Source: Candidatus Omnitrophota bacterium
GTDB lineage: Bacteria > Omnitrophota > Gorgyraeia > Duberdicusellales > 4484-171
NCBI GenBank assembly: GCA_041652815.1
Contig: JBAZGN010000002.1
Span: forward strand, 77,570-141,569
Length of the DNA: 64,000 nt
Direction: 5' to 3'
A program made the translations under genes and the position numbers. The notes under the pieces are model-generated. The model did no database searches. It worked only from the letters and a program-made list of their open reading frames with translations, and had not been told where the DNA came from. Each line of letters opens with the position of its first letter. The first letter of the stretch is position 1. Of this stretch, positions 1 to 64,000 are shown piece after piece.

Positions 1-2
1 TA

Positions 3-3000
3 AAAATAGAAGAAGTGTTTACTGGCATAGAGGTACCAACTTACCCCTCAACCTTACCATTTAGGGAATCGTTACATGCCATTCTCCTTTCTCGGTTTCT
101 ACGCTCAACTCGAACCTTAGCTCATCATTTAAGCGGACAGGAGCAAAAATATTTGCATGTACGCACATTTAATCCGGAAGGTTTAACCGGCTATCCAAAA
201 TTAAAGGATATTTTCGAGAAGGTGTCCTTATTTGTTTATTATGAGCAAGATGGCAATACCATACACAGCTGGATAATTATTGCTCCGGATTTTATCGCAG
301 CCGCCGGCGAGGATTTAACTCGCAGGATGCATTATGTATTCTCGGTTATACACAACGTAGAACAAAAAGTTGTTAGAGACGGAAAGCCTATAGCAGATTT
401 GGATTTCACGGCGATTGATAGAGAAGCGAACAAATTTGCAAATGAAAATATGCAACCGGGAAGGCCTATGGTAGTTAGCGGTTACATATCGAGTCCGGCG
501 GCAGAGGAATGGTTTATAAGAAATTCTTCTGACACTGTTTCTTCTCCTACGGAGGCAAGCAATCATGATAGACTTAAGAGATTAAAAAATTTCATAAATC
601 AAGGAAGTGGCTTTTGTGCTTATGAAAGGCAAGTTTTATTTAATTACTTTGAGGTTTTAAAGAAAACTTTACGGGGAGAGATTGTCTTACCACGCCAAAT
701 AGAAATTCATACAACCACTCGTTGCCAGTTGCGTTGCCGTTGGTGCATTGGAGAAAAGGAAAGGCTTGCCGTGTCACCAACCGATTTAGGCATGCAGACA
801 ATTTTTAAATTGTTGGATGAAATAAAAGCGTATAACGCGCGTCAAGGCGAAGATACTAAAGTTGCATTAGTTAGATTTTCCGGATATTGTGGCGAACCTT
901 TACTTAACCCCGCAACATTACCAGCTATGAGACGGGCTTTAGATTATGATTTGGAAGTTGGTTTAGTTACGAATGGGGTTTTGCTTAGCGAGCCTACTGT
1001 TCAAGGAGTGGTGGCACAAGCAAAGTATGTCCATGTAAGCTTAGACGTAGGGTCCGATAAAACCTATAAATTGCTGAAAGGCGGCGTACTTGGAGAGTAT
1101 GATCAAATTATAGCTAATATTAAACAAATAGCTATGCTTCGTAAAGACTCAGGAGTAAAGATTCAAGTTGGTTTTATTGTGCAGCCGGAAAATTATAAAG
1201 AGTTTCCGGCATTAGCTGATACGTTAAAGGGCATTGGAGCTAATTATATCCGTGTACGGGCTGCGATGCGTGAAAAAAAGGGACAATTAACTCCTGCGCA
1301 GTGGCATGAAGCGTATCAAATAATCCGAGATGTTAAGCAACGGTATACCGATGATACATTCCGAGTGATTGTGATGTATGACGAAAAAGAAGCACAAAAT
1401 TTACAAAGGCCAGACTATCGTCTTTGTTACGCCCATACGTTTTTGGGTGTTATCGCTCCTGATGGAGAGGTACCGCCGTGTTGTCACTTGACGTATAAAG
1501 GAGCAGTGAGTTTTGGCAATATAAGTGAAGCCTCTTTCGAACATATTTATAGAAGTTTTCGTAGGGCAGAGGTAATGCGGAATTTAGATCCAGCTGTTTC
1601 CTGCTCAATCTGCCCGCCCATGGCAGACAGAGTTAACCGATTCATGGAATTTTTGCAGGCAGAATACGTAAAAGACCCCAATTTTATAGAGTGGCTTGAA
1701 TTATTTGTCCGGGAACATAAAAAAGAAGAATCTTCAAGCCCGGTTTCTCCGGATATTAATTTTCAAAATGCTTTCACCGCGCAACACCTTCTTTTGGAAG
1801 AATTACAGCCAGAAGCTGTTATTTTAATGCGGGGTATGTTGGCGGAGGCAAGAGAGCGCTTAGAAAAGGAAGCGGCTTTTATCAATCGGAATAACATAAG
1901 TAATGCGCAACAAAGAATAGCAAGGCTTAATGCCATTATCGCCGATATTGGCAATTTAACTTTCCAAGATGTAGAAAATATACTTAAGATTTGTAAAAAG
2001 TATTTTACTCAGGCGACCGCTCTTAGTAAATCTCTCTGCCAAGAGTTAAGAATAGAACGGAATAAGCTTGCAGGGTTATATCGTATTATTCAATATCTAA
2101 CGGAAATTCAAAACTTATTTGAGCACTATTCTTGTCAGCGACGAAGAATAAGTTTCTTGCGTGAGCCGCTTGTTCCTGAAAAAATCAGGCGTCTTAGGCC
2201 TATTTTTGAAGGAGGAAAGTGTTTGCCTTCGCATGTTGAATTTCATTTAGCGTTGGGGTGCAATTTAAGATGCGAAGGTTGCCCTAATACCGAAAAAGAT
2301 GAAAATGGCAAAATGCGTTTCATCGGCTATTCTAAAATAGGCGATACACTGACCGAAGAAAGAATGAAAATGCTAATTGATATGTTTTTTAATTATGGTG
2401 TTCGCAGTTTCAGTTTTGCCGGTGGGGGTGAACCTTCACTTTCCCCGTTAACTTTTAAAGGCATTCAGTACGTCGGTCAAACTTATCCAGAAGTATTTCA
2501 AGCTATATATACTAACGGCATTTTTCCTAAAAAGTTAACGCCTTCTCATTGGGAGACATTAGCTAAATATTTGAATAAGATTAGGTTTAGCGTCGATGCA
2601 ACAAGCAGAGAAGATTGGTCAAAGTATAAGGGCCGGCCGGCGGAATGGTTTGATATGCTTTGGAGTAATATCCGTCAGCTTGTAGAAATAAGAAATACAA
2701 TAAAAACTAAGTTAAAAATCGGCGCTAGCTGTCTTGCTTCACGAGTAACGCTTGAAAATATTTCAAGATTTCTCGAACAGGCACAAGCAGCGGCAATTGA
2801 TTTTTGCGATATCAAAGAATTGGCTGTTTGCACCGAAGCTAAAGAAGAATTTAGGCCCGATAACAATAAGGTATTACAAGTAGTTAGGAATATATCAGAA
2901 AAGATTAGAGAAGGCGTTTACCAGCCGCTACATATCGTCTTTGACGATACTCTTTTAGCCCCTCTTTCTGAAATGCAGCCTCAAGATTTTCTTTCAGACA

Positions 3001-6000
3001 GATGTTGGTGGGCGATAACCGGCCGCCTATTGACAATAACTCCATATGGCGAAATGTTTCCTTGTCCCGATGCAGCTGATCCTGGTTCTCAGAAGGCAAT
3101 GGTGCATAACCCCGGCCTAGGGGTTTTGAGGCGCTTTGAAAGCATTGAATCATTACGGGAAGAATTCGAACGGCTTTGGTCAGAGGGGTGTGAAAAGCGG
3201 TTATTGATTTCAAGGGAAAACTGCCATTACTGCGTTCCGTCGCACTATAATTACAATTTGGCATTGGAAAAACTTTTTCAAGATTGGTATTTCGGTATAG
3301 AACCAGAAGACCAGCCATTTGCCGGCTTAGAAGATGAATATTTACGTTCACGCGGTAAGGGGCCGGCTCTCAAGGTTCAAGGTAGTTCTCCTTCTTCGTC
3401 TGTCGTTGTCGGTCACTCGATAAAAGGAACAGCCGGCCCCATTGAAATGGCTGTCCGAAGCATTCTGCATCCCGCCTCTTCTCCCGTAACAAAGGCCGGA
3501 TTTTTTGATATTGATGGAGTGTTATTTAGAAAATGTGACAAAGATAGATATGAAACATTAGGCCGGGATTTTGTTTCTCGCGGTATAGCTAAATTACTTA
3601 GCACCGGAAAGATTTGGGAGAGCGTTTTTGAAACACAAAAATATATGCAGATGATTTTAAGAGGAAGTATCGGCGAGCAAGAATTTATCAGTGCCGTAAA
3701 CGCGAGATTAAGAAAACGCGGCCTCAAAAGAGAGTATCAGACCGCCGAAGAACTTTGGCGAGTATTCTTTAGAATCTTAGAGCCTAATTTTAAAATAGTC
3801 AGGATTTTAAAAACTATGCAGGCTTTAAATATGCCTTGCGGAATAATTTCTGACCGCTTTTTGGGTGATGTTCCAGTTATGATGGAGGCTATTGATGATA
3901 CATTTGTTGGCTTATTTGATAGGGATTTAGTTTTCCATTCCTGCGAACATCGCTTTACTAAGCAAGATGGGGATTTGTTTACTATGGTTGTTGATGTTTT
4001 ACGAGGTAAGCATGGTTTAATTAGCCCTAGTGAGATATTCTTCGTGGACGATAATGAAGATATTCTTACAGTTGCTCGGCAGGTTGGTTTACAAACAGTC
4101 CATTACGTATTTGCTGATGCGGTTGCGCCTGAACTCGACTACCCGATTTTTAGAGAAATTCTTAATAGACTCGCTTCTTCTCCCGCTGACGCCACTTCAC
4201 CTAAACGAAAAATATTGCTTAGCACTGACTTAGGCTTTTTCCCGGATGATTATGTGGCACTGGCGTTACTGCTAAATACTCCTGGAATTGATTTAGCCGG
4301 CGTGTTTTTAAGAGGAACGAAAAAATTCCCAGCAGAACCAGAGCAAGCAGAAAGAATTTTAGCGCTAAGCGGCAGAGCATATATTCCTGTGTATTCTGGC
4401 GTAAAGAAAACTTCTGACTCCATAGCAGAAGCTATAACTAAGGCTAAAGGCAACATAGCAATATTATCTATTGGTTTGTTGACAATTCCCTATAAAGCTT
4501 TATCAAAAGTAATAGCGCAGGGAAATGAAAGATTTCTTAAGAATTTGCGCATTGTGATTATGGGCGGGTCATTTAATCCCTGTGAAGATATGGATGAATC
4601 TGGCTTGACCGAATATAATTTCCGCGGAGATTTAAAATCTACCCAAAAGCTATTTAATTTATTTGAAGCACACCGATTTGCCGATGTCAGGATTACGCCC
4701 TATGAAGTGCTTATGCTAATGAGTGTAAATGAACAGATTAAATTTTTAGCAGGCAAGAAAAATTCTGCGGGCGGAATAGTTGCCGGTAAAATCATTGCGG
4801 CTATTAAATATTTTCGCAGAATTAAAAAACTTTTACCCAAAACCCGTTATAATTTCTGTTTGTTTGACCCGGTAGCAGCAGAAGTTTTAGTTAATCCCGA
4901 TATGTTAGTTTGGCAGCCGGTTGAATTTGCAGAGCTGCCTGTTACAGAAGTGCTCGGAAAAACATTCTTTGGTTTTAAACCCAGCAAAAACAGAAATGTT
5001 TTATGCGCTCTCGATTTCGCATCTAAAGTTAAAGAGGGCGAATTCAGAAAGAAACTTGGCAGCCTTTTTGATGATTTAGCAACGAAAGAACAGATTTCTT
5101 CACCGATAGAAGATAATAGCGTCATTGCTTTACTGCAAGAAACAATGCAGGGGCAGGAAATTTCTGAAGAAGGAAAGAAAAAAATAAAGGAAACCGCCGA
5201 AAGCAAGCCCGAGCTTTTTGGAAGAGTGCTATCAGGAGAGCGACGTGATGGCAATTTTAGAAATGCCGTAGATGATGATGAGCAGATGAAAGCATACCGG
5301 GGCGAGATTGAAGGCAAAATAAGCGAGATTGCAGAAATTGGCCGAAGATTACAAGTAAGAGTAGATATCAGGGATTTAATTGAAGACGCCCTGCAGATGG
5401 TCTTTGCGCTGACTCCGGAATATTTCTTTAAGACATATTATTTGGGCAAGGACGCAGCTAAAGAGCATGGCGTGCTGCATGCCTTGGAGGACTTATATTA
5501 CGGTTTAAGGATTATCGAGAAAGATGAAGAATTAAGGAATATGGCTATTGATTATGAATGCCTGATTTATGCCTGCCTTTTACACGATAGCGCCGGGATT
5601 ATTTCTAGGGTTAACCACAGCACCACCTCGGGTTATTTCGCAAAAGCGTTCCTTGAAGCCATAGGCAAAGAAACATTAGCTGCCAAAACATGGAAAGTAG
5701 CGAATGCACATCACGGTATAGAGGTTAAACAGATATGGGGAGAGGCCGTATATGATAATTGCCCCGAAGCAAGGATTATTAAAGACGCTGATTCGCTTGC
5801 GAGCGGTTTAGACGTTGAACGGCTTTGCAAAATGGTTATTTTATGGAAACCGCAACCGGGTGAATATAAAAACTATATTTTTGACGAAGCATACGGCAAG
5901 AAAACAAGATTAGAGCATTGGAACGTAAGATTTCCGCGGAAAAACGGAATAGTGGTAGAGGCAGAAGAAGAAAAATGGGTAATTAGCAAAAACGACAGGG

Positions 6001-9000
6001 ATTTTATACAATTTTTGCTCGATAACATAGTTTTCAAAACTATGCCTATTTATTATATGACCAAAGGCGCAGCAAGAATTTTGCGTGAAAACGAAAAACA
6101 TAGCGCCTTAGGATTTATTTTGGAGAAAGTAGATGATTTGATTGGCGAGTGGGAAAAGAAATGGAAAATTAAATTTAGCTCCGAAGAAAGAGTTGAAATA
6201 AAGAAGATAATTTCCGATTTATATGAAGAGGCGTTAAGAATAGTATGCGAAGAAAAAAATCTTGACTATACGCAGTTAAGGAGAGAATTTCCTGATATCG
6301 GCCAACGGGCAGTAGGTATATTTAAAATGTGCGCTTCTTCTTCCATAAGCTCACCGTTTACCGGCACAGCAGTAGCGGCCTTGAGCGATGAAAAAGGGTT
6401 TGCGTCTTCGCCATTAGCGGGAAGTTCGAGCGACGCAGAGAAAAGAACGCGGAATTTGAAATTTGCGTTAGGTTTATTATGTAAAAGCGGCGATTGGCGC
6501 AAGGCGGTTGAAGTTATAAATGAAATTGGCGAACTCAAATCGCCCGTTGCAATCACAGAAATAATACGTATTCTTTACCGGGATGATTTAGAAATATTGC
6601 ATCAGGATGCTGTTGCGGCTCTTCACAAAATTGATGTTTCAAAGCTTTCCGCCAAACACTACCGTTTTATCGTCACATTAATTTCCGGATTGATACGCAA
6701 CAGAATTTCCGGCAGCAATTTCGTCGGCATAGACCCGCTTTCCAAAGATTTATTTGAATTATTATGCCATACCACTCGTTCATGGAGCGATATCGAAACT
6801 TTCAGTAATTGGATGCTTACGCGGATAAATATGGTTTCCTACTTTGCGGACGAATATTCACAATCGATGTACATTATGTATTATATGGTTGAAACAGCCA
6901 AAATGTTTGCTGAGCCGGCAGCCGTAGAACTGGTTGTTAAAATCAAAGATAAAGCAGTAAAGTTCAGAAGTTATTTATCTGCCACAAAAATTGTCCGCAA
7001 ACACCGGCTGATTGAAAAGTTAGACGGCCTTATTGATTATGCCGATAGAGTATTAACTTATTTAGAGGCTGTGCCGTTTAACCCGGATAAATTGCAACAG
7101 GTATCTTCGCCCATAGGCAGAAGAGAAGTAGAAAGAATAAGAGGGCTGATTGAAAGAGTTGATGCCCTTGCTGCAGAAGTGAATAAATTAGCATGGGATT
7201 TTTCTCCCGCCGGCAACGAGCACACAATGCTTTCTACGAGAGGTCAGCAATTAATGAGCTTTGGGGAGATAGTCAGGAGCTCGGACACTCTCGACGAAAA
7301 ATATTTTGACTTTTTTAACATTTGGGAAAATTTATTATCTTGTTGGATGAATTTCTTATCCAGGCGTGTACGTAACTCACACGAGGCAGCTTTTAAGAAA
7401 GCAGAAAAAATGCTTCGTTTGAAAATTATCCCGGGATTTGAAGAAGCAATCAAGATGTGGCTGTTTACGAGCGAAGATTATTTAGGCAGATTTTATTTGG
7501 ATTTAGCCATTGTTAGGTTGGAAGAAGCAGAACGTTGCATAGACGAGTCGCAAGGAAAAATTCTCCTGCACAGAGAAGCTATAAGCCGTAGATTCAGACG
7601 GCATCATCTAAGTAATTTAGGAAGCAGCAGATACGAATTGGCAAAATTTGATAATCGCGTTGCTGATTTAGAAAAAATTAAAGCCGAAATAATTAGCGTC
7701 AACGATGAATTAGAACGTTGTCGTTCTGCAGGGTTTCTCGAGAATTTACCTGTAATTATTTCTTCATATCGAAGAGTTAAAAGAATAGCCGGGTTAATTA
7801 ATAGTGTAACAGTAAACGCGTTTTTAAGGATATGTTTATTCGAAAGAGGAAGCCTTATTTCCAGGGCAGAAGCCGACTTGGATGCAATAATAAAAACCGC
7901 CGCTTCAACCTCCAGCCCCCTCATAACCGGCACTTTCCGCACCCAACTTGGCATATTATCCGAAGCAATTGTTATAGATAACGTATTAATAAATACTTTT
8001 TCTTCATCGCCGGTGAGGAATATTTCTAATGGCATCCCTCGTTCCATGAACGCTTTTTTAAAAGAAGCGTTTACGCGTTATGAAAACGAAGGCGCTGCAT
8101 GGGCGAATAACTTTCTTTATCAGAATCATGAAGCCGGAGTATTTGCTGACGGAAGGTCTGCGCGGTCATTTCTTGAAGCAGTAAAAGTTATTACTGCTGT
8201 TGGTGAGCCGGATATGAGAGCCGGTGCAAAATGGATACTTTCTTTAAAGAATTTGCCCGATATCTTAAGCATGCTTAAGCCGGGAGAGCAGGATTGGCTT
8301 AATTATGCCTTAGGCATCGCTTCTCGGCTTGAGCATAACCTTCAGCCATTAAATGTTTGCAAACATAATGGTGACCTGAATAGTGCTTTAAAAAATTGTT
8401 CCTTTCTCTCTGGCGATGAAGGAAAAGTGACGGTTTCAAAATCAGATCCTTTCCACGTTACCCTATGTTATAAGAAAATCCCTGATTTTAAAGGAAAACT
8501 GTATCTTAGGTTAAAGGCTGGTAATAATAAAGAAGAAATTTTGCTTTTTGAAAATGCCAAAAATTATTCAGCAAACAATTCAGAATGCTACATTTGGCAG
8601 ATTGCCCCTTCAGCTTACGATGGATTCCTGGAATTCGATTTCATAATGTTAGATGAATACGGGTCATTTTCTTTATTGATAGACCGCAGAAGATTTAATT
8701 ACATAAATAAGATATCTCCCTTAAGTATACCTATGTTGGGAGTAAATTATCAAGCCGCGGATAGATTAAAAGAAACAAATGTGGTTGCTTATGCGATGGA
8801 AGCTGCTCTTCTGATGCAAACCCTTTCTGGAACCATGGGAGGCGGTTTAGGAATTTTGATGGGAAGTTTTTTACGGGCTTTAAGGTATTCAGGCGCCAAT
8901 GTTTATTTTCCGCTTCTAAGATACGCCAAAGGGATTGAGCAACGCGTAGCAGACGGCAAGCCCCAGGTAGTAAAAGGCGTCAGTTTGGATTATTCGGTTT

Positions 9001-54000: not shown

Positions 54001-57000
54001 ACCCTGATGGCCTATATCTTAATGTGTCGTCAAGTTGTATCTCGGACGCGACTATACCGGAAAAAATAGAGCTAGAAATTCCTGTTGAATGGTATTCGGA
54101 TGATTCCGTGGTATCAATAAAATTGGCTACCCCCCTGGAAGGGGACCCTATAATCAGATATGCACAGGCATCAATTACTCCTCTTGAATATCAAGTTGAT
54201 TGCCTTTTAGAAATCGTTGAGCATATTGAGCCTAATGCTGTGATGCTTAATTTAGGCTGCGGTGTAAACCTTATACGAAACAGATGGAAGCTACGTGTTT
54301 TAGTATATAATTTCGATTATCAATATTCAGCAGTATGCCCCGAATATGAAGCGGCACGTATCGGTGCGAATTACAGAAAATATGATTGCAGTGAATTATC
54401 TTCTTGGGTGGAAAGCTTTAAAGTCGGTAATCCCCATTGCTTAATACAATTCATTCTTCTTGCCAAAGATATGTGTTTTTGGTTTGGCCAGTATTTTTCG
54501 GACAAACGGTCATTGTACCAGGCCAGGCATATTCACGGGATTTTGAGAAACGCCTGGAAAGCGCTTGAAGGGCCTGCTGCCTATATAATCGTAACTTCTC
54601 CGGGTTGCGATAAGTATTTGCAATATCTTTCAGCTTTTTCTCCCGGATTGACGAAAATTATTGTTGTCGGTGCAGCGCTTGGAGATTTCAAAAAAGCAAA
54701 AGCTGTATTATTTCAAAAAGAGAGCACCAGCTCACCTCTTTTTGCCAAAACTTCTCAGGCGAGCCAGATGGTTTTACGCTGCGTGGACACTACCAAAGAG
54801 CCTTGTTGTATCAACCATCAGGCAGTCAGGGATATCGTTGAGTTATGCGAGAAAGATAATAGTTTTCTGGGAATATTTGCTGATGTTATCGTTAAATATT
54901 TAAGTGACGATAATTTATTATTGAGAAATGTACTCTATGAAATCGTTGAAATGTTAAATGGCCATAGTTGTGCCAGGAAGTTGCCTACGCTTTTCGCTGA
55001 GTTATTAGCCAGAAGGCTTCCGGGGGATGAATTGGTAAAATTATTAGCTAAGTGTTCTCATGTAAACGCAGAAATGGTGCCGGACGACAATAAGACCACA
55101 TTCCCGCCATATGTTAAAAGCGGATATGTGCAAGGCGATATTGATTTAAGCCATGAAGAGCCGGGTTTAATTTTAAAATTATATAGGCATGCACGATATT
55201 ACTACATAGAATATCAGGGTAAAAAGGCAGAATATAAAGGAAAAATAATTGGCTTTGTACAAACCTACCGTCCCAGCGTAGAAGACATAATATTTTTAGG
55301 CATTCGTGTTTTTGAGAGAGTTGAACCGGGAATAGGCACTACAGTAATGCGTTGGGCCGCAGAATGGGCAGGCAGTAATGGTAATGTTGTTTTTCAGTAT
55401 CCTGTTGATGAAAACTATATCAGATTTATGCTGCACTGTGAGCGCGAAGGAATATTAGATGCTATAGAAATTGCACTGCTTCCTATTGCGGAAATACCGT
55501 TTATACCCCATTCTGCTTTATGCCGCTTGCCGCAAAAATATACACCGGACGAACAATCTTTCTGGCAGAGAGTAAATAATATTGAACATGTTGCGGCGTT
55601 AAGGCCTAAATTATCTCCCGGCACAAATATTTTTGTCCGGGGAAAAGTAACCTCAAAAAATACCAGTTCAACCGAGGCCAGCTCGCCGCTTACTGACGTA
55701 AATGCATATCTGACAAGTTACCTTGCAAAATATGTAACCAGAAGCAGTAAATTTGGAGAAAAGGAATTGAAGCTGCAAGAGAAATACGATAGGCAACTAA
55801 CTTTGAATTTGCCAAAATTTGATGAGTCTGATTTAGCTGTCGCCATAGAACATATTATGGATAATGCCGTGCATTTCTCACCGCAAGGAGGAGTGATAAC
55901 CGTAATGACAAGCTATGAAGTTAAAAATCGAAAAAGAAAAGCGGTAATCGCGATATCCGATAACGGTAAAGGTATTGATGTAGCGCAAATTGTAGAACGT
56001 GCGCTCGCAAGAGGGGTTATCTCCAAAGAAAAATTAAGAAAAATGACATATAGACAAATATTCCAATTGGTTTTTTTACCCTTTATTACCACCAAACCAC
56101 AAGGCTTTGGAGGCTGTGGCCTAGTTTGGGCGAAGATAGCTATAGAAAGGAATAAAGGAGCTATTAAAATACATTCAAAATGGGGTAGCGGCACCACAGT
56201 ATTTATTACCTTATCTATTATGCACATCGCTTCTAGCCCCACCCTCGAAGAAAGTGACGAACAAATAAAAGCACGTATTATGGCTGTTATAGAGGAGTAT
56301 AACTTTTGTCGCCGCCGAGCGCGTGAAATTTGGTTGGAGTTCGAACCGAATTTTGATTTACCGCTTGAAATTTCCGGAATGCTTGGAGTAGCTACTGGCC
56401 ATATTGATAGAATTCCTCCGGAATTTCCTACAGCATTAACAATGTTGAGAAAAGGCATATCTCGATATGAGCGATTTATGGATGAGCTTAGAGGGCGTAA
56501 TACAGAAGTAACTCTTGCCAAAGCCGAAGCATTAAATAGCGCATTAATTCTTCTTGATTACGCAAAATCTAAGTTAGAATCAGCTGTCTCTATGCTTGAA
56601 GCGCATCTCAGCACGAATGGTACCGAAAATACTTCAAGTGCTGTTTCGTATATAGAAGGGAGAGAATCATTCGAATATAAATCGTCCATCAGACAAAATA
56701 ATAATTCTCGGTTGCGGCAGAGTTCAAAAGGGCGGTTTGCCTCTCCGTGGCTGGTGGGGGCCGCCCTCTCTGCCGTAACCGTTTCTTCGCCAATACAGAA
56801 TGGTAATGGAGATAATTCAGAGAAACAGAACAGTGAGTTTACTACCGCAACAATGCGGTTACGACGCCTCAAGAGCGAAGCGGAAATTATCCAAAGCTTA
56901 AAGTCGCTTCTGGCGCAACTGCATTTGTTAATGCCCAACGATAATGAAAATGGCAACGGGAATATATATCTGCCAATGTTAGCCAACCAAATTGATTCAT

Positions 57001-60000
57001 TAAATGGTTGGGGAGGAATTTTGCAAAGAGTAAGAAATGATTTCCGGGGCGAGAGAGATGTGCAATCTTTAGCAAATATCTGTATGCTGGAAAAAGCTTT
57101 AGGCGTTTCTATCGACGATCAGGCAGCTTCAGAAAGCACGCCACCAGAGGCAAAAGAACAGGCATATTTAGCTTTTGTTGCGAATGCCCGCGCTGAAAGA
57201 ATACTACGTGAAACAATGCGTACAAAAATGGGGCTAAGTAGGCAACAGCTAAGACATTCACGCAAGATGGCAGCAAGGCGCGAAAAGGCAAGAATTGCCG
57301 AGCAAAAAGCTCAGCAAGCCGCAAAGCCAAGGCATAGCCCAAGAGCGTTAGCAAAAGAAACTCGAGAAGATGCGAAGCAACAAGAAAAGTTAGCTCAACA
57401 AAAAGAAAAAACGCACAACAAAGCATTAAAAAGACAAAATAAATACTATAGGGCTCACCAGAGAGAACTCCGGCGTAAACGCCGTAAGGTCTGGCTGTGG
57501 GCTAAAAAAGCTTCTCGTTCCCGGAAAACAAATACAATTATACTTAGCGATATAGAAAAGTTGGTAGCAAAAAAACATTTCAGCCCCACCTATTATTCTC
57601 TTCTTACTATTGCTAGAGAATTAAATTTAAGCCCGCCGCAGGTGTGGCTTATCGCAAAAAAAGTTTTGTTAAAATATTGGATTTCTGCTTTAGAACGGCC
57701 CAATCCTAAATATTCAATCGAAGAACTCGAAACTGCTGTAAATCCGGTTGCAACGCTTTCTCTAATTGTAAATACACCTTTTGTGCGCCAGTTACTTTGG
57801 AGAAACAATCAGCTGGAATTGCCTGTTATTCCTTTAGATTTTAATCCAGCAACGCCAGAAGAGTTTTTAACGAGGCTGCAAGCGCTTTTAAATATTCTGG
57901 AGATAATGGAAGCAACTTACCAAGAAAGTTCAATGTTTGATGAACTTTTCTTCGTTACAGAAACGCTGCAGCATTTGGCTTTAGCCGGAGAAATAAAAGC
58001 TGTTGTGCGGTATAATTTAGTGCGCTTGCGCCATACCAGTGCCTATAAAGCGCAGCCGGATAAAGCTTATCTAGAACGGCATATCTCTCGAGCAGATTTA
58101 GCTCATGAAATAGGAACTAATTCGCGCACAATTGCCTGGGTAGAAAAAGGCCAAGAGCGCGTTCCTTACTCTATGGAACTTTTAGGCAAAATTATACGTT
58201 TATTGGCATTCTCCGGCAAATTCGAATTAGATTACGCAAATACTTCATTGCCCGGCAAGGCTCAAGCTGTTGTAGGCTTACTTTGTGATAACCGAAACTT
58301 AGATTTGTCTTATAACATAGTTCTTGCTGCCAGAACAGTTAATACCGGGCTGGCTTTGCGCGCGGAAAATATTCTGATTTCTTCGCAGAAAATAAATACT
58401 AATTTTGTTGCAGCCTCTGAGAAAAGTAAACAAAAAACCTATGCCGCAAAAACTGAGCTGCTTCTTCCGCAAAGAGGGTACCCTTGGGAGTTAAGAGGCC
58501 AGGCTGCCGCTATTTTCCGATTAAATTTAAGGCTCGTATTAGAACAAGGGACTACCGTAACCAGAGCGCAGGGAAAAGGGGAGAAAAGTAATTCCAAAAA
58601 AGAAGCGCTTATGTCTTATAGAGATATAGCGCAAAGCATACACCGGCCGGTTTCTTTTGTGCTGGCAGTTGCACAAAATCGCCATGACGAAGGAAAGCTC
58701 TGGATTTTTAATGTGGATTCTATTTTGTCGTATCTTGCCTCATCACGGGTTATTTTATATGCTATCAGCCAAGACCCGCATAAAAGTTTCGAGGATGTAT
58801 TAAGGCTAATGTTTAATGTCGATAGTATGGCAAGAATGAGAGGTATTATCGAACAGGTAGAGGCGATTAATGGAAATAGGGCTGCAACTATTACTAACAT
58901 TTCACCCGAGGAAGCAGTTTTATCAGGAATGTATAAGCAAGGAAAAGAAAAGCGGTTTGCAGGCGCGGCCTTAGAGCGTTTAGGGGGAAATTTAAAAACT
59001 ACAATGCAGGCTGTTTCTATTTGCGGGAAACCTCTTACTTATAAACGCTTGGCAGATTTGTTGCACATATCTCTTAGGCAGATTAAAGGGATTGCTGCAG
59101 CCGAAAGGCCTATTACTTATCCTGCGGCATACAGTATTATCTGGACGTTTTCTGGATTACGGTATCAGGAAGGAAAAGACAGGGAAAATCTTTTTAAAGA
59201 AACAACGGATTTACTATTTTCATCCTCTTCGCCTATTCAGCCAAAGCGTAATAGTCAAGATAAAGGTAAAATAATAAGGCCGCGCAGCTCTCAACAAGTA
59301 GAAAAAATGATTGAGACGGCAATGGGACTGGCTCCTTTGCCGCGTATTTCAATGCTGTGGCATGCTAATTTGTTCCATAATTCCGAATATGATTGGAGAA
59401 ACAGTTTCATTATGACAAAAATCGCAAAAGCGTACGTTAAGCTTGATAATTATAGCAGAGCAGAAGCATGGTTATTGCGTGCCGTAAAAGCGGATATGCA
59501 CCTTTTAGCTCTCAGCCGCAGATACCCTTACGATCGTTTCCGTGAATATGCGTTTCACAGCCAGGCAGTAGGTTATTGTATGCTTTCCCAGTTTTATTTA
59601 GATTGTGCAAACAAAGGAATAGATTCGAATCGTATGTTTGAAATGGCACAAATGGCAATTATGCGCGCAGTTAAAATTGATTCTTATCGCAATAATCATG
59701 ATCTTAGGGTGGCAGAACAGCGAGATAAAGTTTTCGCAATTACAGGAAAAGCTTCATCTCCTGCGCCCAATGAAAGTGATGTTCCGGTAAATAAGCATAT
59801 CTCTATTCCTTATACCGTAAAGCGCGGCGATATTTTTCATTCAGGAAGAAAAATTGAACTGATGATTTTTGAAATTAATCGTGGATTTATTGTATTTGAA
59901 ATATGCAGGCCTAACCAGGATTTTATTGAAGGAAAAGGCCCGAGAGGCCCGCCAGCTTACCATGACAGAAGAACTGTAACTGCCAACAATCGCACCGTAC

Positions 60001-63000
60001 AAATTATTCCCGGATTTAATATACGGGTCGAGAAAATAAAAAATAGCAAAGCTTATATCCATCTTATCTCTCCCGCCAACCGTCAATTTGAGGAAGGACA
60101 AGTTCCCGAACGAGGCTCAAGCCCTGTAAAAGCTGATACAACAAAAAATAAACGAACCGCTGAAACATATCGAAGGCAGGCAAAAGTTTTTAAAACCGTA
60201 CAACGGCTTGCAAAGAGAAGGCATAACACCGCCAATTGTAATATAACAGTTTCCGAAGTGGCCGCAGAATTAAAAGATACATTAAGCCGTAGGGCTGTCG
60301 GTAAGGACTTGTTAAGGCTTGAGGAATTTCATTTATTGACAGGTAACCGCAGAAACAGAAAAAATATTTGGACATTTTGGTTGGCAAAAGATATTGGTAC
60401 CTTTACGCGTCAGGATTTAGATTGGCTTACTCAATATATTGAACGTGTTAACAATAATACGCGATACGTATCAAAGCTTTTCGAAGCAGCTATTGGCCAG
60501 TACCCGAGGGATATACGGCTTGGAGCGCTACATAGACAATTTACCGAACTTTTGCAATCTGATGATGCAGCGGCCTTAGCATTTATCCGAGACGCAGCAA
60601 AATTTTTGGATTACCGTGGCCCATACGAAAAACAAATTCAGCTTGCCGGCATGTTGTTTTTTTCGCAATATGTCCCCTCCGGCTATTTATTCATACCCCA
60701 ATCAGTGAAGCACAAAAGAAAGAATCTAAAAAAAGAACGGCTTTTAACAGGAGAGGAATTATATTTACAGCGGATAGGCGAGTACCCACTTTTATCTGCT
60801 CTCGCAGAGGTGGTTTTATGTATAAGGGCGCGATACGGCGATAAAGAAGCTACGCAAAGAGTGTGGGAGTCAAACCTGCGGCTTGTAGTAAGCATTGCAA
60901 AAAAGTATGCAAAGAGATATAGATTTGCCCTCCTGGATTTAGCGGACGTAGGAAATATCGGGCTACGCAACGCAATACCTAAATTTGAACCGCAATTAGG
61001 TTTTAAATTCAGTACCTATGCCACCTGGTGGATACGCCAGGCAATACTGAGAGAAATTGAAATGCAGCGAACGCAGATTCGTATCGCAGGGAAACAGCGG
61101 GATACAGATGAAGAATTCAGGAGACTTTGCCTTACGAAATTTGGCATTGACCCGGCAAGCCCTCAGGCATCACCTGAAGTGTCCCCTGTGCATATCGCTG
61201 AAATTACCGGCGTTCCCGTTGAAGAAGTTGAAGATTACCGCCGGCGCAGCTTGCCAATGCCGTCAATTGATCAAGCGTTTTCCGGAAAGGATAAAGATGA
61301 ACCGGAAGCAACATTTAAAGGTAATTTAGGAGAGGAAGACGAGGCCATTGATATTATGACTATCCGTAGAGTGATAGAAGAAATTATTGCAAGGACTGAT
61401 TGGGCGCTTACGCGAAAGTGGAGGAAAAGCCCCAATCGCGGAAGAGATATGTTAATTTGGAAGTTACGCGTAGCAGATGATTTATTGGGCGCAGTGGGTG
61501 CGGAAGAATCTTTGACATTAGAAAATACCGCAAAGCGTTTATATGAGCTCGGCTATACTGGGGAATCAAAAGATAAGCCATTAACAAGAGAAAGAATACG
61601 ACAAATAGAGATAAAGATAAGACGTGTGCTTGAGCCAATTGCGGTTGACGTTTTAAAAGATGCCGGCATGGGCGTAGATTTCCTTAGTCTTTACGAAAGC
61701 TTCTCGGAAAAATCTCAGGGTGGAATTAATGAAACTGCCGCCAGCTCGCCGGCACCGCAAACCGATAATTCCCATATTCCTTATCCGAGAAAAGGGTCAT
61801 CTTTAGAGCGCCAGCGTAGGCTGCAAGATTTTATTAAAGAGCATACATTTACCCATAGCCGGCTTGTTAAGTACGGCATGCATCCTACACGTTTACCTTT
61901 CGAGATATTAATCAAAGCTTTAAACGAACTTGAACTGCGCTTCGGCGGTCCCGGAAGTTTGAGAGGTAAACGGCTTCTTGATTTAGGAACTGGTGACCTG
62001 CGAGTGGGGCTGGCAGCTGCCTATCTTTATGGTATGTATGTAACTGCGGTAGAAATTGATGAGGATGTGCACAAAAAAGCATTTGAAGTTTATAGGAAGG
62101 CACAGGCACAAGGTTTTACTGAAAGACTTACCTTTATAGATAGACCCCAAAATGCCTTTGGCCTTCGATGGGAAAAGAATGGGGAGAATTTCGACATTGT
62201 ATTTTTCTTTTATACTGAGCCCGCTCAAGACGTTGCGATATGGAGGAAAACTCTTAAAGCTTGCACGAATACTTTGAAACCAAGCGCTGTCTTGGCTATT
62301 GTGGCTAATGAAGTTAATAAAAGCCAAGGGCAAAAATATAATGTTGACGAGCTTAAGGCGCTTTTTATAAATTCACCGCAGGAGATGTATATTGGCAGCC
62401 ACAATGATCTCGGTAATCTTTATGTTTTTTATCCCGATAATTCCGCAAGCTCGTCGCTTAATAATGGCAAAAGTTCCAGCATCGCCACGCAGAATCAGAA
62501 TAATGCTTTGGTAAGCTCAAGCCCCCTCTCGCAAAATTTATGGCCGGCTGTAATAAAACGCATTACAAACTCTCTTTATTATGACAAATTGGTTTCTGTC
62601 GGTATGGCTATACCAGTGTTATCGGCTGATGACACTTTATATTCCCGTTTAAGCCATATTTGTAGAGTCGAAACAGCTGCAAAGCTCTGGGCGCAAAAAT
62701 GGCGTAAAGGCTTATGCAATCGCGTTAAGCTGCAGCCGGATATAATTACATTTTTCGCTATTTGCCAACAGCTTGGCGCTGCTGCTTTTGCGAATTATAC
62801 TGGAGAGGTTTTAAAACTTAACGGAAATAATTCCGGAGAGCTTCATTTTGCACAGGCAATTGTCCATGATTTATGTCATTCCAAGAGAGCAACACTGAAT
62901 TCAATACAGGGCTATTTACAGGAAATCCAGCAACTTGCTTTGGAGAATATTCCTAATTTATCTTTTGAAGCCAAATTCGTCGTAGCCAGCAATGTGCTTA

Positions 63001-64000
63001 TAGGCTTAATTGAGGATGTTGTTTTTGCCCGGCGGCTGGGTTTAATAGATGAGCAAAACGCTAATCAACCCTTATGTGTATTTGAACAAAGGTTTGGCGC
63101 AAATAGCCTAAACCGCGTTGATACCTTATCCGATAATAATACTAATGAAAGAATAAGCTATATAGCCGTAAATTTTATAAATAGATTTAATGGCAGGCTT
63201 GATTATGAAACATTAAGGCAATTAAGTAGATTGCATAACGATGTAATTACGGTTATTAGGGAAAGGCTGCGCCAGATTTATAAGGTAGAGGCGTTTAGTG
63301 AAGCGGCAAATAAAGTCTTTATAGCTTTAAAGACGCATCTACGCAATAATTTACAAGCTGTATGTATGGAATTTCTCAAATTAGGAGAACCGCAATTGCT
63401 TAACCGGGCAGCTTGTTTGGAGAATTTGCCTCCACAACGCTGGAAACAACATTTAAAAAGAATTCAAGACACTGGTACGGCCGCAGTAGGTTTTGCACAA
63501 ATTTCGCGGATGTACTTGATAGAACATAGGCCGATAAGAAGAATAAGCGCTGAATTCGGCATAGCCGAACCCCTTGTTTGGTTAATGACCCGCCGCGCGC
63601 AGATAAGGCACCTAATGCGAAATTCTTTACCGCTGGAGGAGGCATTGCGCCGCATTGAGCCCCTCCTAACCTTGCATACAATAGTAGACATTCCTTTTGT
63701 TAAGAAAGAGCTAGGCATAAATAAAGAGTTTGCCGAATTGCCGGAAGAAATTACCGAAGCTAATGTTCGTAGCGTGCTTAAAAGCTTAGAAGAATTCTTA
63801 CAAATACTTGAAGATACTTACGCTAATCCCGCAATGCCTTTTGATAATTTATTTTCGGTTGCTTTAATGAATTATAAAGAGCGTCTCGCGCTTTGCGGGC
63901 CTCTAGCGGCAATAGTAAGATATAATCTTAGTTTTGCAAGGAATAGCGGCATAAATAAAAGCATTGCCGCAAAGTCAAAGCATGGCCATTATATAACCTG
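3..64000 (+). CDS. Internal fragment of a giant multidomain ORF. It is open at both window edges, has at least 21,332 codons and no in-frame stop.
   Basis: Frame with codon starts divisible by 3. Verified codon by codon for 3-692 ([11 protein letters not shown]...[20 protein letters not shown]) and 63951-63998 (...[16 protein letters not shown]). The remainder was read continuously with no TAA/TAG/TGA met. The supplied ORF track has zero entries in this frame, while every listed + ORF starts at a position with start mod 3 = 1 or 2. Dozens of canonical enzyme motifs read cleanly in this single frame across all 64 kb. Confidence 0.85.
690..1650 (+). other. Domain: radical SAM core with a C-terminal Cys-rich SPASM/twitch-like extension (copy 1).
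   Basis: CxxxCxxC at 723-746 ([13 protein letters not shown]). Gly-rich [10 protein letters not shown] at about 885-910. Downstream Cys cluster PPCCHLTY...SCSICPP at about 1470-1620. Confidence 0.78.
2200..3260 (+). other. Domain: radical SAM core with a SPASM-like Cys cluster (copy 2, tandem to copy 1).
   Basis: CxxxCxxC at 2259-2282 ([12 protein letters not shown]). [13 protein letters not shown] motif at about 2410-2450. Cys-rich tail CWWAITG...[11 protein letters not shown]...[10 protein letters not shown] at about 3000-3245. Confidence 0.72.
3495..4130 (+). other. Domain: HAD-superfamily hydrolase (copy 1).
   Basis: Motif [10 protein letters not shown] at about 3501-3527. C-terminal [10 protein letters not shown] at about 4040-4070. 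It follows an SSP linker ([16 protein letters not shown]). Confidence 0.7.
4210..5050 (+). other. Domain: inosine-uridine nucleoside hydrolase-like.
   Basis: N-terminal [21 protein letters not shown] resembles the DxDxxxDD aspartate cluster of IU-nucleoside hydrolases (cf. DCDPGHDDAxAL). [13 protein letters not shown] follows downstream. Confidence 0.4.
5380..5830 (+). other. Domain: HD metal-dependent phosphohydrolase-like.
   Basis: [11 protein letters not shown] (H-D dyad at about 5583-5588). Downstream [13 protein letters not shown] acidic motif at about 5775-5810. Confidence 0.45.
8700..10330 (+). other. Domain: alpha-glucan (glycogen) phosphorylase-like, GT35-like.
   Basis: [17 protein letters not shown] at about 8838-8880 resembles the phosphorylase GNGGLGRLAACFLDS motif. 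[17 protein letters not shown] at about 10140-10190 resembles the E-A-S-G-x-x-x-M-K PLP-lysine region. Confidence 0.42.
10840..11470 (+). other. Domain: HAD-superfamily hydrolase (copy 2), paralogous to 3495-4130.
   Basis: [18 protein letters not shown] at about 10826-10870. [10 protein letters not shown] and C-terminal [10 protein letters not shown] at about 11390-11415. The whole module is collinear with copy 1 (GIISDRF..., FHS(Y/C)EH..., FFVDD..., Q(T/A)(V/I)HY(V/A)F). Confidence 0.7.
15650..16900 (+). other. Domain: Glu/Leu/Phe/Val amino-acid dehydrogenase-like.
   Basis: [10 protein letters not shown] at about 15765-15795 (compare the GDH catalytic-Lys GGxKGG box). [16 protein letters not shown] at about 16250-16300 matches the ELFV dinucleotide-binding GFGNVG motif. 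Confidence 0.45.
17700..17760 (+). other. P-loop NTPase Walker A motif.
   Basis: [17 protein letters not shown]. GxxGxGKST at 17727-17750 was verified codon by codon. Confidence 0.5.
20410..20485 (+). repeat. Copy 1 of a roughly 75-nt conserved element (peptide [25 protein letters not shown]).
   Basis: The 13-nt tcggttgcggcag is shared with the copies at 34810 and 56708. ccgtggctggtgg is shared with all copies. ctgccgcagccg is shared with copy 2. Confidence 0.7.
23260..24450 (+). other. Domain: B12-binding-like N-terminal module plus radical SAM core (class B-like, copy 3).
   Basis: Rossmann-like [12 protein letters not shown]...RIIGGAHAS at about 23260-23600. CxxxCxxC at 23895-23918 ([14 protein letters not shown]). 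Downstream AIEFGIEN...YYLAGLPQE is typical of radical SAM TIM-barrel strands. Confidence 0.68.
33020..34450 (+). other. Domain: CBM48 (E-set) followed by a GH13 alpha-amylase-family catalytic domain.
   Basis: [21 protein letters not shown]...GDIWEITIP at about 33020-33200 (CBM48 pattern FxVWAP..V.V.GDFN..W...GxWE). GH13 region [14 protein letters not shown] at about 33640-33680. Region [13 protein letters not shown] at about 33843-33875. Confidence 0.65.
34810..34885 (+). repeat. Copy 2 of the roughly 75-nt conserved element (peptide [25 protein letters not shown]).
   Basis: tcggttgcggcag...ctcttccgtggctggttgg...ctcttgctgccgcagccgct. Near-identical nucleotide strings to copy 1. Confidence 0.7.
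36950..38700 (+). other. Domain: GH77 4-alpha-glucanotransferase (amylomaltase/MalQ-like).
   Basis: Three family-typical boxes. [18 protein letters not shown] at about 37085-37140 (compare SPYxxxSAFAxNPLxI). [17 protein letters not shown] at about 37900-37950 (compare the LRIDH nucleophile box). [11 protein letters not shown] at about 38433-38468 (compare the EDLG acid/base box). Confidence 0.7.
39700..39960 (+). other. Domain: GHKL-type ATPase-like (anti-sigma/Ser-kinase-like).
   Basis: [12 protein letters not shown] (N-box-like) ...[25 protein letters not shown] (G1-like DxGxG). Confidence 0.4.
42280..42900 (+). other. Domain: MutS-family (domain V) ABC ATPase-like.
   Basis: Walker [21 protein letters not shown] at about 42404-42445 closely resembles the MutS ITGPNMGGKSTYMRQ box. 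Walker-B-like [18 protein letters not shown] at about 42640-42690 (compare MutS DExGRGTSTxDG). Confidence 0.55.
43726..43776 (+). other. SEC-C zinc-binding motif.
   Basis: [16 protein letters not shown] is near-identical to the SecA C-terminal SEC-C consensus ([15 protein letters not shown]). Confidence 0.75.
44100..44460 (+). other. Domain: possible class I SAM-dependent methyltransferase fold.
   Basis: [18 protein letters not shown] (motif I-like hhDhxxGxG) ...[10 protein letters not shown] (motif II-like). Confidence 0.3.
45810..46800 (+). other. Domain: eukaryotic-type Ser/Thr protein kinase-like fold, possibly a pseudokinase.
   Basis: Gly-loop [12 protein letters not shown] at about 45834-45870. 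VAIK-like RYAIKVY at about 45895-45915. Catalytic-loop position reads [13 protein letters not shown] at about 46296-46330, where the HRD Asp position is read as Glu. DFG position reads LIDSDGT at about 46350-46370. Subdomain [15 protein letters not shown] at about 46536-46580. Confidence 0.55.
47260..47640 (+). other. GHKL-ATPase-like module, copy A of a tandem paralogous pair.
   Basis: [10 protein letters not shown]...[34 protein letters not shown]...[22 protein letters not shown]. Confidence 0.45.
48080..48500 (+). other. Domain: class I SAM-dependent methyltransferase.
   Basis: Motif [18 protein letters not shown] at about 48160-48215. Downstream [10 protein letters not shown] and GGKIFIF are motif II/III-like. 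Confidence 0.55.
49330..49700 (+). other. GHKL-ATPase-like module, copy B (paralogue of 47260-47640).
   Basis: [10 protein letters not shown]...[37 protein letters not shown]...[22 protein letters not shown]. Collinear with copy A. Confidence 0.45.
51160..51990 (+). other. Domain: endonuclease/exonuclease/phosphatase (EEP) family.
   Basis: [19 protein letters not shown] at about 51286-51320. LGGDFNT at about 51688-51710. [12 protein letters not shown] at about 51945-51975. Confidence 0.65.
52000..52680 (+). other. Domain: SGNH/GDSL hydrolase.
   Basis: Block [12 protein letters not shown] at about 52015-52045. Block [11 protein letters not shown] at about 52318-52340. Block [12 protein letters not shown] at about 52605-52635 (DxxH). 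Confidence 0.65.
53380..53650 (+). other. Domain: GHKL ATPase-like (RsbW/SpoIIAB anti-sigma-factor-like).
   Basis: [48 protein letters not shown]-box E..N...HA and G1 box DNGPGM. Confidence 0.45.
55150..55450 (+). other. Domain: GNAT acetyltransferase-like fold (tentative).
   Basis: [47 protein letters not shown] resembles GNAT motif A (V-x-x-x-x-R-x-x-G-x-G). Confidence 0.35.
55840..56220 (+). other. Domain: histidine-kinase-type HATPase_c catalytic ATPase.
   Basis: N box [12 protein letters not shown] at about 55852-55885. G1 [10 protein letters not shown] at about 55950-55980. G2 [13 protein letters not shown] at about 56095-56130. G3 [11 protein letters not shown] at about 56184-56215. 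No convincing upstream H-box was found. Confidence 0.7.
56708..56785 (+). repeat. Copy 3 of the roughly 75-nt conserved element (peptide [27 protein letters not shown]).
   Basis: tcggttgcggcag...cctctccgtggctggtggg...ctctgccgtaaccgtttct. Confidence 0.65.
57120..57500 (+). other. Lys/Arg/Gln/Ala-rich highly basic low-complexity segment.
   Basis: ...[81 protein letters not shown]... Confidence 0.5.
57560..58060 (+). repeat. Internal protein-level repeat module, copy 1 (homologous to 63500-64000).
   Basis: ...[12 protein letters not shown]...[41 protein letters not shown]...[17 protein letters not shown] is collinear with ...[11 protein letters not shown]...[42 protein letters not shown]...[17 protein letters not shown]. 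Confidence 0.55.
58070..58200 (+). other. Possible XRE/Cro-type helix-turn-helix.
   Basis: [42 protein letters not shown] (compare the Cro/C1 pattern LSQxxLAxxxGVSxxxIsxxExG). Confidence 0.4.
60750..61650 (+). other. Domain: sigma-70-family RNA polymerase sigma factor, regions 1.2/2 through 4.
   Basis: [14 protein letters not shown] (region 1.2). [18 protein letters not shown]...[43 protein letters not shown] (regions 2.1-2.4, verified codon by codon at 61002-61040). [15 protein letters not shown] (region 3). [15 protein letters not shown]...[19 protein letters not shown] (region 4.2 HTH, about 61500-61645). Confidence 0.8.
61900..62350 (+). other. Domain: class I SAM-dependent methyltransferase (second copy of the fold).
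   Basis: Motif [20 protein letters not shown] at about 61965-62020. Motif [14 protein letters not shown]. Post-II FDIVFFF. Confidence 0.55.
63500..64000 (+). repeat. Internal repeat module, copy 2 (paralogue of 57560-58060). It continues past the window edge.
   Basis: See the alignment under 57560-58060. The AIVRYNL / AVVRYNL signature is shared. Confidence 0.55.

Follow-up and report, generated by a model that had tools for sequence, protein, structure and literature searches.

Giant genes of ultra-small bacteria are a recognized puzzle: what role do their products play, and do these act as one chain or are they cut? The same question is raised by a 64,000-nucleotide (nt) stretch of contig JBAZGN010000002.1 (assembly GCA_041652815.1, deposited as Candidatus Omnitrophota bacterium; positions 77,570 to 141,569 of the forward strand), referred to below as the window, in which a single open reading frame (ORF) is punctuated by a Ser-Ser-Pro (SSP) tripeptide. 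The window adds a giant multi-enzyme ORF from an essentially unsampled lineage, and its 59 SSP sites form an unusually clear case of a strict motif, selected as a peptide and located at fold boundaries and at a position homologous to a stop/start junction. We tentatively favor a reading, to which we give less than even credence, in which SSP is the cleavage site of a polyprotein.

An earlier note on this DNA had claimed that one stop-free + frame crosses the whole window and had proposed counting its stops. A six-frame count bore this out: the + frame read from nt 3 (nt 3-63998; amino acid [aa] i corresponds to nt 3i..3i+2) holds 0 TAA, TAG or TGA in 21,332 codons, whereas the other five frames contain 768-1,859 stops each and a longest open run of 214 codons. 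With a stop probability of 0.065 per codon, as derived from base composition, a stop-free run of 21,332 codons would arise by chance with a probability of ~1e-619. Furthermore, the GC content stays between 0.39 and 0.45 in each 2-kb block and decreases from the first to the third codon position (GC1 > GC2 > GC3) in each 6-kb block, indicating coding sequence throughout. Neither edge of the window closes the frame, in line with the claim that the gene exceeds the window, and 21,332 codons is thus a lower bound. The window is therefore an internal piece of a genuine giant gene, which exceeds 64 kb and runs on beyond both edges. Stop-codon reassignment need not be invoked, since the frame contains no stop of any kind and the other frames show a normal stop density. 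Internal genes were also considered and rejected, as Met codons, Shine-Dalgarno-like sequences, promoters and terminators gave no signal for them; across the window, promoter-like and terminator-like sites occur at chance level only. Scans of the window returned no tRNA and no Rfam family, and no large direct or inverted DNA repeats were found in it, only five short repeat families.

Pfam and NCBIfam scans of the translation yielded 23 domain matches to ~20 Pfam families, with 4 more families from NCBIfam, every one of them in this frame. Of the earlier claim that about 30 families share a frame, the shared frame is thus upheld, while the number comes to about 24. No family dominates (maximum of 3 copies, for radical SAM and methyltransferase), the modest scores show that the modules are divergent, and no family was matched over about half of the chain. 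Some 50 modules of protein size (median 264 aa) follow one another in the single frame, joined end to end, and each is a self-contained enzyme or regulator of a kind for which ordinary bacteria have a gene of its own. A Kyte-Doolittle scan found no convincing transmembrane (TM) helix in the 21,332 aa, the ends of the protein lying outside the window (the best candidate, at aa 14690, scored 1.9). Together with the module families, this indicates that the predicted content is cytoplasmic in type, with modules that would need Fe-S clusters, S-adenosylmethionine and ATP and others that would bind DNA or RNA polymerase, in agreement with the earlier description of the locus as a string of cytoplasmic-type enzymes plus a sigma factor.

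Could such a locus have arisen by chimeric assembly, by the collapse of a repeat or by an artificial joining of stop-stripped coding sequences? The source contig and its close relatives are indeed missing from the public collections that we searched, and 60 nt from the window start had no exact match among their genome and metagenome contigs. However, a mis-join would not keep one frame over 64 kb, base composition and codon-position GC are even throughout, the window lacks repeats that could collapse, and the modules are all highly divergent, unlike copies of genes from known genomes. Moreover, the architecture and Pfam repertoire agree with those of independently assembled Omnitrophota giants, and analogous punctuation is found in public proteins from metagenome-assembled genomes (MAGs), as described below. 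An artefact is therefore extremely improbable, and we hold a real, uninterrupted modular ORF with punctuated boundaries to be very probable.

The punctuation itself is highly specific. SSP occurs 59 times in the translated frame against 3.7 expected, and the full motif [GASVIT]-S-S-P-[VALITSF], with [GASVI]-S-S-P-[VALI] as its consensus, occurs 57 times against 0.64 expected, while single-substitution neighbors (TSP, STP, SAP and others) and the permutations PSS and SPS are not enriched. The tripeptide is encoded by 43 distinct 9-mers that use all six Ser and all four Pro codons. Selection thus acts on the translated peptide and the junctions must be translated, which rules out a DNA-level origin of SSP as a recombination site or repeat. 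Successive sites are separated by a median of 264 aa, roughly the size of an ordinary bacterial protein; nine intervals are short (4-33 aa), and SSP-free stretches reach up to 1,256 aa, some of which may contain more than one domain. This punctuation, the most informative feature of the window, was absent from the earlier note.

Not one of the 59 SSP sites falls within a Pfam envelope. The sequence had been cut into Pfam chunks at 25 of these sites, so that a fair test of avoidance is restricted to the 34 internal ones, of which none lies inside a domain against 6.2 expected (P = 0.001). Matches adjoining the cut sites start or end at profile ends, showing that the cuts did not bisect domains, and many SSP sites are 3-13 residues away from the edge of a domain. 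Paralogs, too, extend exactly from one SSP to the next, as seen for the two HAD modules (233 and 234 aa), which are 42% identical from end to end. In an AlphaFold model, the HAD unit between SSP 1159 and SSP 1392 is predicted with a confidence (pLDDT) of 86-98; both SSPs are at the margins of the confident region, the upstream one in coil immediately ahead of strand 1 and the downstream one where the last confident helix ends. The nucleoside-hydrolase half of the same construct stayed below a pLDDT of 50, and the HAD unit alone is informative.

Homologs encoded by ordinary genes point to the same boundaries. In a Deltaproteobacteria MAG (MB3D_Bin_18, locus L001), maltokinase and GH77 are encoded by two genes with an ATGA stop/start overlap (...VALA* / MNHSR...), and this junction aligns to the window SSP at aa 12289 within ~10 residues either side (35% and 45% identity). 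Likewise, stand-alone HAD homologs have their initial Met at the position directly after SSP. Because both kinds of gene boundary align with SSP, the giant ORF is, as far as alignment with these homologs can tell, an operon-like set of genes joined in frame, in which a peptide motif marks the earlier gene borders.

Several large modular remote homologs carry different, equally strict, domain-spaced motifs: RSExR, xSLG and GARLA (Table), all of which vary at synonymous sites. These motifs occupy equivalent positions. In the window SSP stands on both sides of the HAD module, and the orthologous modules of P0017 and P0063 have xSLG there. The maltokinase+GH77 block is preceded by SSP at 11 aa in the window, by RSELR at 15 aa in P0001 and by GARLA at 9 aa in the ORF of locus L003. 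Its end coincides with an SSP in the window, and in P0001 an RSEMR comes 10 aa further on. When the proteins were cut into pieces blind to the motifs, 0 of 18 GARL[AS] sites and 0 of 24 R[SA]ExR sites fell inside Pfam domains (~3.1 expected and P = 0.035 for each), and the combined probability of domain avoidance for the window, GARL[AS] and R[SA]ExR is ~1e-6. Junction motifs of this sort are not described in the giant-protein literature that we compared, including the catalog of Nielsen and Lui (2026; bioRxiv 10.64898/2026.06.07.730766), where no such punctuation is mentioned for the class of giants that the window otherwise resembles.

We infer that SSP is a recognition site. If it is a cleavage site, many operons would here be written as a single reading frame, with the punctuation in the protein instead of the mRNA and SSP in the place of the stop and start codons of an ordinary operon. 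A dedicated endopeptidase, encoded outside the window, would recognize SSP and cut the nascent or finished chain into individual proteins, thereby releasing alpha-glucan enzymes, radical SAM enzymes, hydrolases, kinases, methyltransferases and a sigma factor. Site and protease would co-evolve in each lineage, giving RSExR, GARLA and xSLG in related giants; that the motif is strict, yet chemically unrelated elsewhere, suggests such a lineage-specific pattern, as known from viral polyproteins. Several further features favor the release of individual proteins. The modules are protein-sized and autonomous, a near-complete sigma factor must bind the RNA polymerase core, the enzymes are needed in different amounts, and the paired SSP sites with 4-33 aa between them recall polyprotein spacer peptides. 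Ribosomes drop off at a rate of the order of 1e-4 per codon. At such a rate, it would be inefficient to translate more than 21,000 codons in full, unless each finished module can serve by itself.

The viral systems offer a close parallel to this polyprotein reading. The polyproteins cut by picornavirus 3C, potyvirus NIa, coronavirus Mpro or the retroviral protease likewise join many mature-sized proteins in one ORF, with short, strict, family- or lineage-specific motifs at protein boundaries and short spacers between paired sites. Retroviral type-1 cleavage sites also have Pro followed by Ile or Val at P1'-P2'. In contrast to the viral cases, the window belongs to a cellular genome, at 10-100 times the scale and with metabolic and regulatory cargo. 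Other observations weigh against cleavage at SSP. A Pro-containing site would be unusual, being atypical for many endopeptidases, and Pro at P1' blocks type I signal peptidase. No peptidase domain, and hence no cognate protease, was detected in the window even at E values up to 1, where about half of the modules are dark to Pfam and the rest of the gene lies outside. The SSP flanks are just slightly more polar than average, exposure having been modeled for one module only. Finally, the protein searches found no close relative in which individual SSP sites could be compared, and the large relatives P0021, P0011 and P0047 show no obvious motif.

The missing protease would also fit an intact mega-enzyme, that is, a tethered metabolon or scaffold in which SSP acts as a passive rigid breaker that insulates the folding of neighboring modules. 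Pro readily interrupts helices and strands and Ser often serves as a cap, properties that suit a passive junction, and the modeled HAD unit places SSP in coil at its domain edges. Nielsen and Lui (2026) also read giants as intact, membrane-anchored multi-domain enzymes. However, a passive linker should allow TSP, SAP, GSP and variable lengths, whereas exact SSP alone is enriched, and the charged RSExR, the hydrophobic GARLA and xSLG at the same boundaries fit specific recognition better. In addition, the function of a sigma factor is hard to picture when it is tethered in a chain of more than 2 MDa. We thus regard an intact chain as rather unlikely.

Recognition need not imply cutting, and SSP could instead be a site for proline-directed phosphorylation, for a parvulin-type prolyl isomerase or for a chaperone acting co-translationally on each module. 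Ser-Pro is the minimal site of proline-directed kinases and Pin1-type isomerases, so that the motif suits such enzymes. Its strictness fits enzyme recognition, and both a Ser/Thr kinase and a SidJ-like pseudokinase are encoded within the ORF. A gene for a Rotamase_2 prolyl isomerase is moreover conserved beside giant genes (West-Roberts et al., 2023, bioRxiv 10.1101/2023.11.21.568195). On the other hand, RSExR, GARLA and xSLG lack Ser-Pro and would require a different enzyme in each lineage, and no isomerase or chaperone was seen in the window, making a non-proteolytic role of SSP distinctly improbable.

With more reserve than for the window itself, we suggest that giant bacterial ORFs of this type may be cellular polyproteins, namely, operons rewritten with lineage motifs that are cut by a co-evolving protease. 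If true, this would be a mode of gene expression undocumented in cellular organisms at such a scale and a counterpart of viral polyprotein expression. West-Roberts et al. (2023) suspected cleavage of giant proteins on the basis of their peptidase domains and stated that the cleavage points were unknown; the motifs would then provide the first usable map of cutting positions. They supply candidate sites that make it directly testable whether, and where, giant proteins are processed, and they offer a simple rule for dividing giants into units for structure prediction and annotation.

How does the window compare with other giant proteins? ORFs of more than 20 kb occur in most Velamenicoccia genomes (Seymour et al., 2023, PMC10066038), curated proteins reach 85,804 aa (West-Roberts et al., 2023), and Nielsen and Lui (2026) list 5,761 proteins of at least 10 thousand amino acids (kAA), with 209 of at least 30 kAA in their collection and a longest of 147,155 aa. 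The earlier statement that only a handful of proteins exceed 20,000 aa is therefore outdated. Nielsen and Lui distinguished three classes, the first of which contains many Pfam families with none dominant and has methyltransferase/HATPase_c/HAD/HD and GT5/radical SAM/sugar enzymes as co-occurrence modules. The window matches the Omnitrophota giants of this class, being an ORF of at least 10,000 codons tiled with many families, none dominant, with a near-unique sequence and a shared repertoire (PF08323 GT5, PF08241 methyltransferase, PF02518 HATPase_c, HAD, HD and radical SAM). Its domain content, which the earlier note had called unusual, is thus that of the published class 1 "multi-enzyme metabolic clusters". 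This kind of giant multi-enzyme ORF has been known since 2022-2026, and the window is a highly divergent example of it. Unlike the catalog, where ~2% of residues are TM, the 21 kAA of the window showed no convincing TM helix by hydropathy. In the catalog, 94% of proteins (100% above 50 kAA) have a TM segment and/or signal peptide; the ends of the present protein are outside the window.

The window also shares a giant single ORF with GT5 and metabolic enzyme domains with the archaeovorins and dockerin-type giants of ultra-small bacterial hosts, such as the 39,678-aa protein of Velamenicoccus archaeovorus. Unlike these, domain scans of the window found no dockerin, TSP3, C39/S8 peptidase, SecA DEAD helicase or TM-rich regions, and only a SEC-C metal-binding motif (PF02810) of 16 residues was detected, at aa 14575-14590. 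Fusion enzymes and megasynthases (AROM, CAD, fatty acid synthases [FAS], nonribosomal peptide synthetases [NRPS] and polyketide synthases [PKS]) similarly join enzymes that are separate elsewhere in one chain, which there remains intact, carries out consecutive steps of one pathway and uses carrier domains or channeling. In contrast, the window mixes unrelated functions (glucan metabolism, radical SAM, MutS-like ATPase, kinases and sigma factor), and no carrier, condensation, adenylation, ketosynthase or acyltransferase domain was detected in it with Pfam. It also differs from giant adhesin, RTX and Ig- or cadherin-repeat proteins in having no tandem repeat domains or large DNA repeats; the earlier note had likewise described its content as not dominated by adhesin or Ig/cadherin repeats.

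Table. Features of the window and junction motifs of related large proteins. Positions are window nt unless a locus is named; aa ranges refer to the translated frame.
Feature	Position	Strand	Evidence or remark
Continuous ORF, 21,332 codons	3..63998	+	open at both window ends
Two radical SAM modules (aa 180-577 with SPASM; aa 578-1127)	540..3383	+	PF04055, PF13186; paralogous, 24% identity
HAD hydrolase module 1 (aa 1159-1391)	3477..4175	+	PF00702; SSP at both ends
Nucleoside hydrolase (inosine-uridine; aa 1392-1698) and HD phosphohydrolase (aa 1699-2115)	4176..6347	+	PF01156 55 bits, PF01966
GT5 starch/glycogen-synthase-like module (aa 2668-3608)	8004..10826	+	PF08323
HAD hydrolase module 2 (aa 3609-3842)	10827..11528	+	Pfam and paralogy to module 1; SSP at both ends
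Two Glu/Leu/Phe/Val-dehydrogenase-like modules (aa 3843-5098; 5099-5883)	11529..17651	+	PF00208 64 bits; GdhA/GdhB models
Cupin, in order between dehydrogenase-like modules and B12-binding radical SAM		+	Pfam/NCBIfam scan
B12-binding radical SAM module (aa 7744-8208)	23232..24626	+	PF02310, PF04055
Large module with SidJ-related pseudokinase region (aa 8739-9797)	26217..29393	+	NF033874, E = 2.4e-6
CBM48 module, isoamylase/branching-enzyme N-terminal (aa 10875-11587)	32625..34763	+	PF02922
Maltokinase (aa 11678-12288) and GH77 4-alpha-glucanotransferase (aa 12289-13143)	35034..39431	+	TIGR02457; PF02446; SSP between at nt 36867
MutS domain V-like ATPase module (aa 13748-14343)	41244..43031	+	PF00488; MutS and KamC models
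SEC-C motif and methyltransferase-like (aa 14560-15119), first part of block	43680..48968	+	PF02810; PF13489 matched in the block
Ser/Thr protein kinase (aa 15263-15622)	within block 43680..48968	+	PF00069
Unknown module (aa 15623-15901) and methyltransferase (aa 15902-16322)	within block 43680..48968	+	paralogy
Endonuclease/exonuclease/phosphatase (EEP) and GDSL hydrolase module (aa 17026-17559)	51078..52679	+	PF03372, PF13472
HATPase_c module, histidine-kinase/HSP90-like ATPase (aa 18560-18743)	55680..56231	+	PF02518 50 bits
Helix-turn-helix region, in order between HATPase_c and sigma-70		+	Pfam/NCBIfam scan
Sigma-70 family factor module (aa 20039-20580), regions 1.2 to 4	60117..61742	+	PF04542, PF00140
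Methyltransferase module, last (aa 20581-20838)	61743..62516	+	PF13847
SSP motifs, n = 59	489..62525	+	first bases in the next five rows
SSP 1-12	489, 540, 1734, 3384, 3477, 4176, 5097, 6348, 6405, 7104, 7911, 8004	+	
SSP 13-24	10827, 11529, 15297, 17652, 18957, 19962, 20553, 21147, 21159, 23232, 24627, 26217	+	
SSP 25-36	29394, 29493, 32625, 34764, 35034, 36867, 39432, 40155, 40758, 41055, 41109, 41199	+	
SSP 37-48	41244, 43032, 43680, 45360, 45789, 46869, 47706, 48969, 49791, 50343, 51078, 52680	+	
SSP 49-59	53241, 53904, 54729, 55680, 56232, 56784, 59226, 59754, 60117, 61743, 62517	+	
Hairpin copy 1	20405..20482	+	-39.6 kcal/mol, z = -4.4; 24 aa upstream of SSP
Hairpin copy 2	34805..34882	+	-40.4 kcal/mol, z = -3.7; 13 aa downstream of SSP
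Hairpin copy 3	56702..56785	+	-48.9 kcal/mol, z = -7.0; abuts SSP at nt 56784
P0014 (Omnitrophota), 7,560 aa: RSE[AMVTL]R, 24 sites	L007 20-22702		'RSE' 26 vs 2.9 expected
P0036, 3,763 aa: RSExR, 10 sites			'RSE' 14 vs 1.4 expected
P0012, 3,425 aa: RSExR, 9 sites			'RSE' 10 vs 1.2 expected
P0001, 2,675 aa: RSExR, 4 sites			
P0063, 2,661 aa: xSLG, 10 sites	L008 8001-15986		'SLG' 10 vs 1.25 expected
P0017, 2,784 aa: xSLG, 7 sites			'SLG' 7 vs 1.15 expected
L003 ORF (Omnitrophota Bin_62), over 7,935 aa: GARLA	L003 563-24367		16 vs 0.1 expected

Among the individual modules, GH77 gave the best Pfam score in the window (149 bits), and the sigma-70 module is near-complete, covering positions 45-307 of the 329 of the RpoS model with 141 bits. 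The HATPase_c match stops 7 aa short of the next SSP. A block duplication was observed at nt 43680-49790 (aa 14560-16596), in which a methyltransferase-like and an unknown module each occur twice (aa 14560-15119 versus 15902-16322, 27% identity; aa 15623-15901 versus 16323-16596, 31%), with the kinase module inserted into the first copy.

No relative above ~35-45% identity was found for the window sequence in public data. When aa 1128-2135, which span three modules, were compared exhaustively by HMMER with 1.84 billion representative proteins, only 63 weak single-module matches resulted, the best at E = 5e-29 and 34% identity. In a word-indexed search of 5.8 billion proteins, aa 13748-18743 (4,996 aa) had no match at E <= 1e-10. 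Word-indexed searches with aa 11678-13747 and aa 7744-9797 gave 3 matches (27-28% identity) and 2 matches (24% identity), respectively. Those homologs of the HAD and HD modules that carry a name come from MAGs of 'Candidatus Omnitrophota bacterium' and are ~30% identical, and the HD module is 31-37% identical to modules in large Omnitrophota proteins. The nearest relatives of maltokinase/GH77 are from Desulfobacterota, namely, the Deltaproteobacteria MAG mentioned above (45%) and Desulfonema (34-41%; D. magnum, L004, and D. limicola, L006), against 29% for Omnitrophota. The closer match of this pair to Desulfobacterota hints at horizontal acquisition of modules or a non-Omnitrophota host. The window holds no marker genes; overall, the host is probably a member of Omnitrophota or a related group.

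Two observations were made at the ends of the large relatives. The complete protein P0014 starts with a twin-arginine-like leader, MAAFSRRAFLTGLG..., and its first RSEAR motif stands at residue 27, about where the leader would be removed (both within residues 1-31; L007 20-112). The C-termini of P0001, P0007, P0008, P0014, P0015, P0017, P0028, P0036 and P0063 are similar and finish in ...[AS]A, with endings such as LTAA, LVAA, ARAA, AVAA and ISASA, which suggests a common C-terminal domain or signal.

The window further contains three in-frame + strand copies of a GC-rich element of ~75 nt (Table), which are the three strongest RNA-structure outliers in the window and have no Rfam match; copy 3 was matched with 38 bits (E = 1e-9). 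The 5' arm, CGGTTGCGGCAG, has identical codons (RLRQ) in all three copies, and in the 3' arm of copy 3 pairing is kept through G.U and A-U changes while the peptide changes from AAA to AVT, suggesting that the stem is under nucleotide-level constraint. All three copies lie 0-24 aa from an SSP (rough chance 0.007), and TTTCTT follows two of them.

Such stable structures next to SSP sites would suit a scheme in which separate products arise without proteolysis, through internal starts, mRNA processing or peptide-bond skipping, the long frame being a by-product of lost stops. However, there are only 3 hairpins for 59 junctions, neither Met codons nor Shine-Dalgarno-like sequences are enriched after SSP, the promoter- and terminator-like sites stay at chance level, and peptide-level selection on SSP means that the junctions are translated. 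Skipping peptides of the 2A type require a conserved stretch of ~18 residues and are not known to work on bacterial ribosomes, which speaks against skipping at SSP. The mRNA within 25 nt on either side of SSP is, if anything, slightly less structured than the ORF average (GC-corrected minimum free energy residual +1.8 kcal/mol, z = 2.6), and a general role of RNA structure at the junctions was therefore rejected. Taken together, these data make separate products of this kind very unlikely.

The hairpins may represent palindromic elements inserted in frame, remnants of hairpins once intergenic, or mRNA structures with a function. Rickettsia palindromic elements are in-frame palindromic repeats within protein-coding genes, and the window copies resemble them in being palindromes of ~75 nt, in frame, in unrelated protein contexts and with a nucleotide-conserved stem. 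Unlike the Rickettsia elements, they are present in only three copies in the window, have no homology to a described element and lie near module boundaries, a closeness that could instead point to an intergenic relic or a functional mRNA structure. Use of the hairpin as a lineage tracer was abandoned, as a scan of metagenomes with the stem returned 10 contigs with unrelated loops. Five small metagenome contigs (L012, L014, L015, L016 and L020; GC 0.45-0.48) carry a conserved ~69-nt hairpin that has the 12-bp stem of the window element, an unrelated loop and a T-run before it, and is apparently a separate element.

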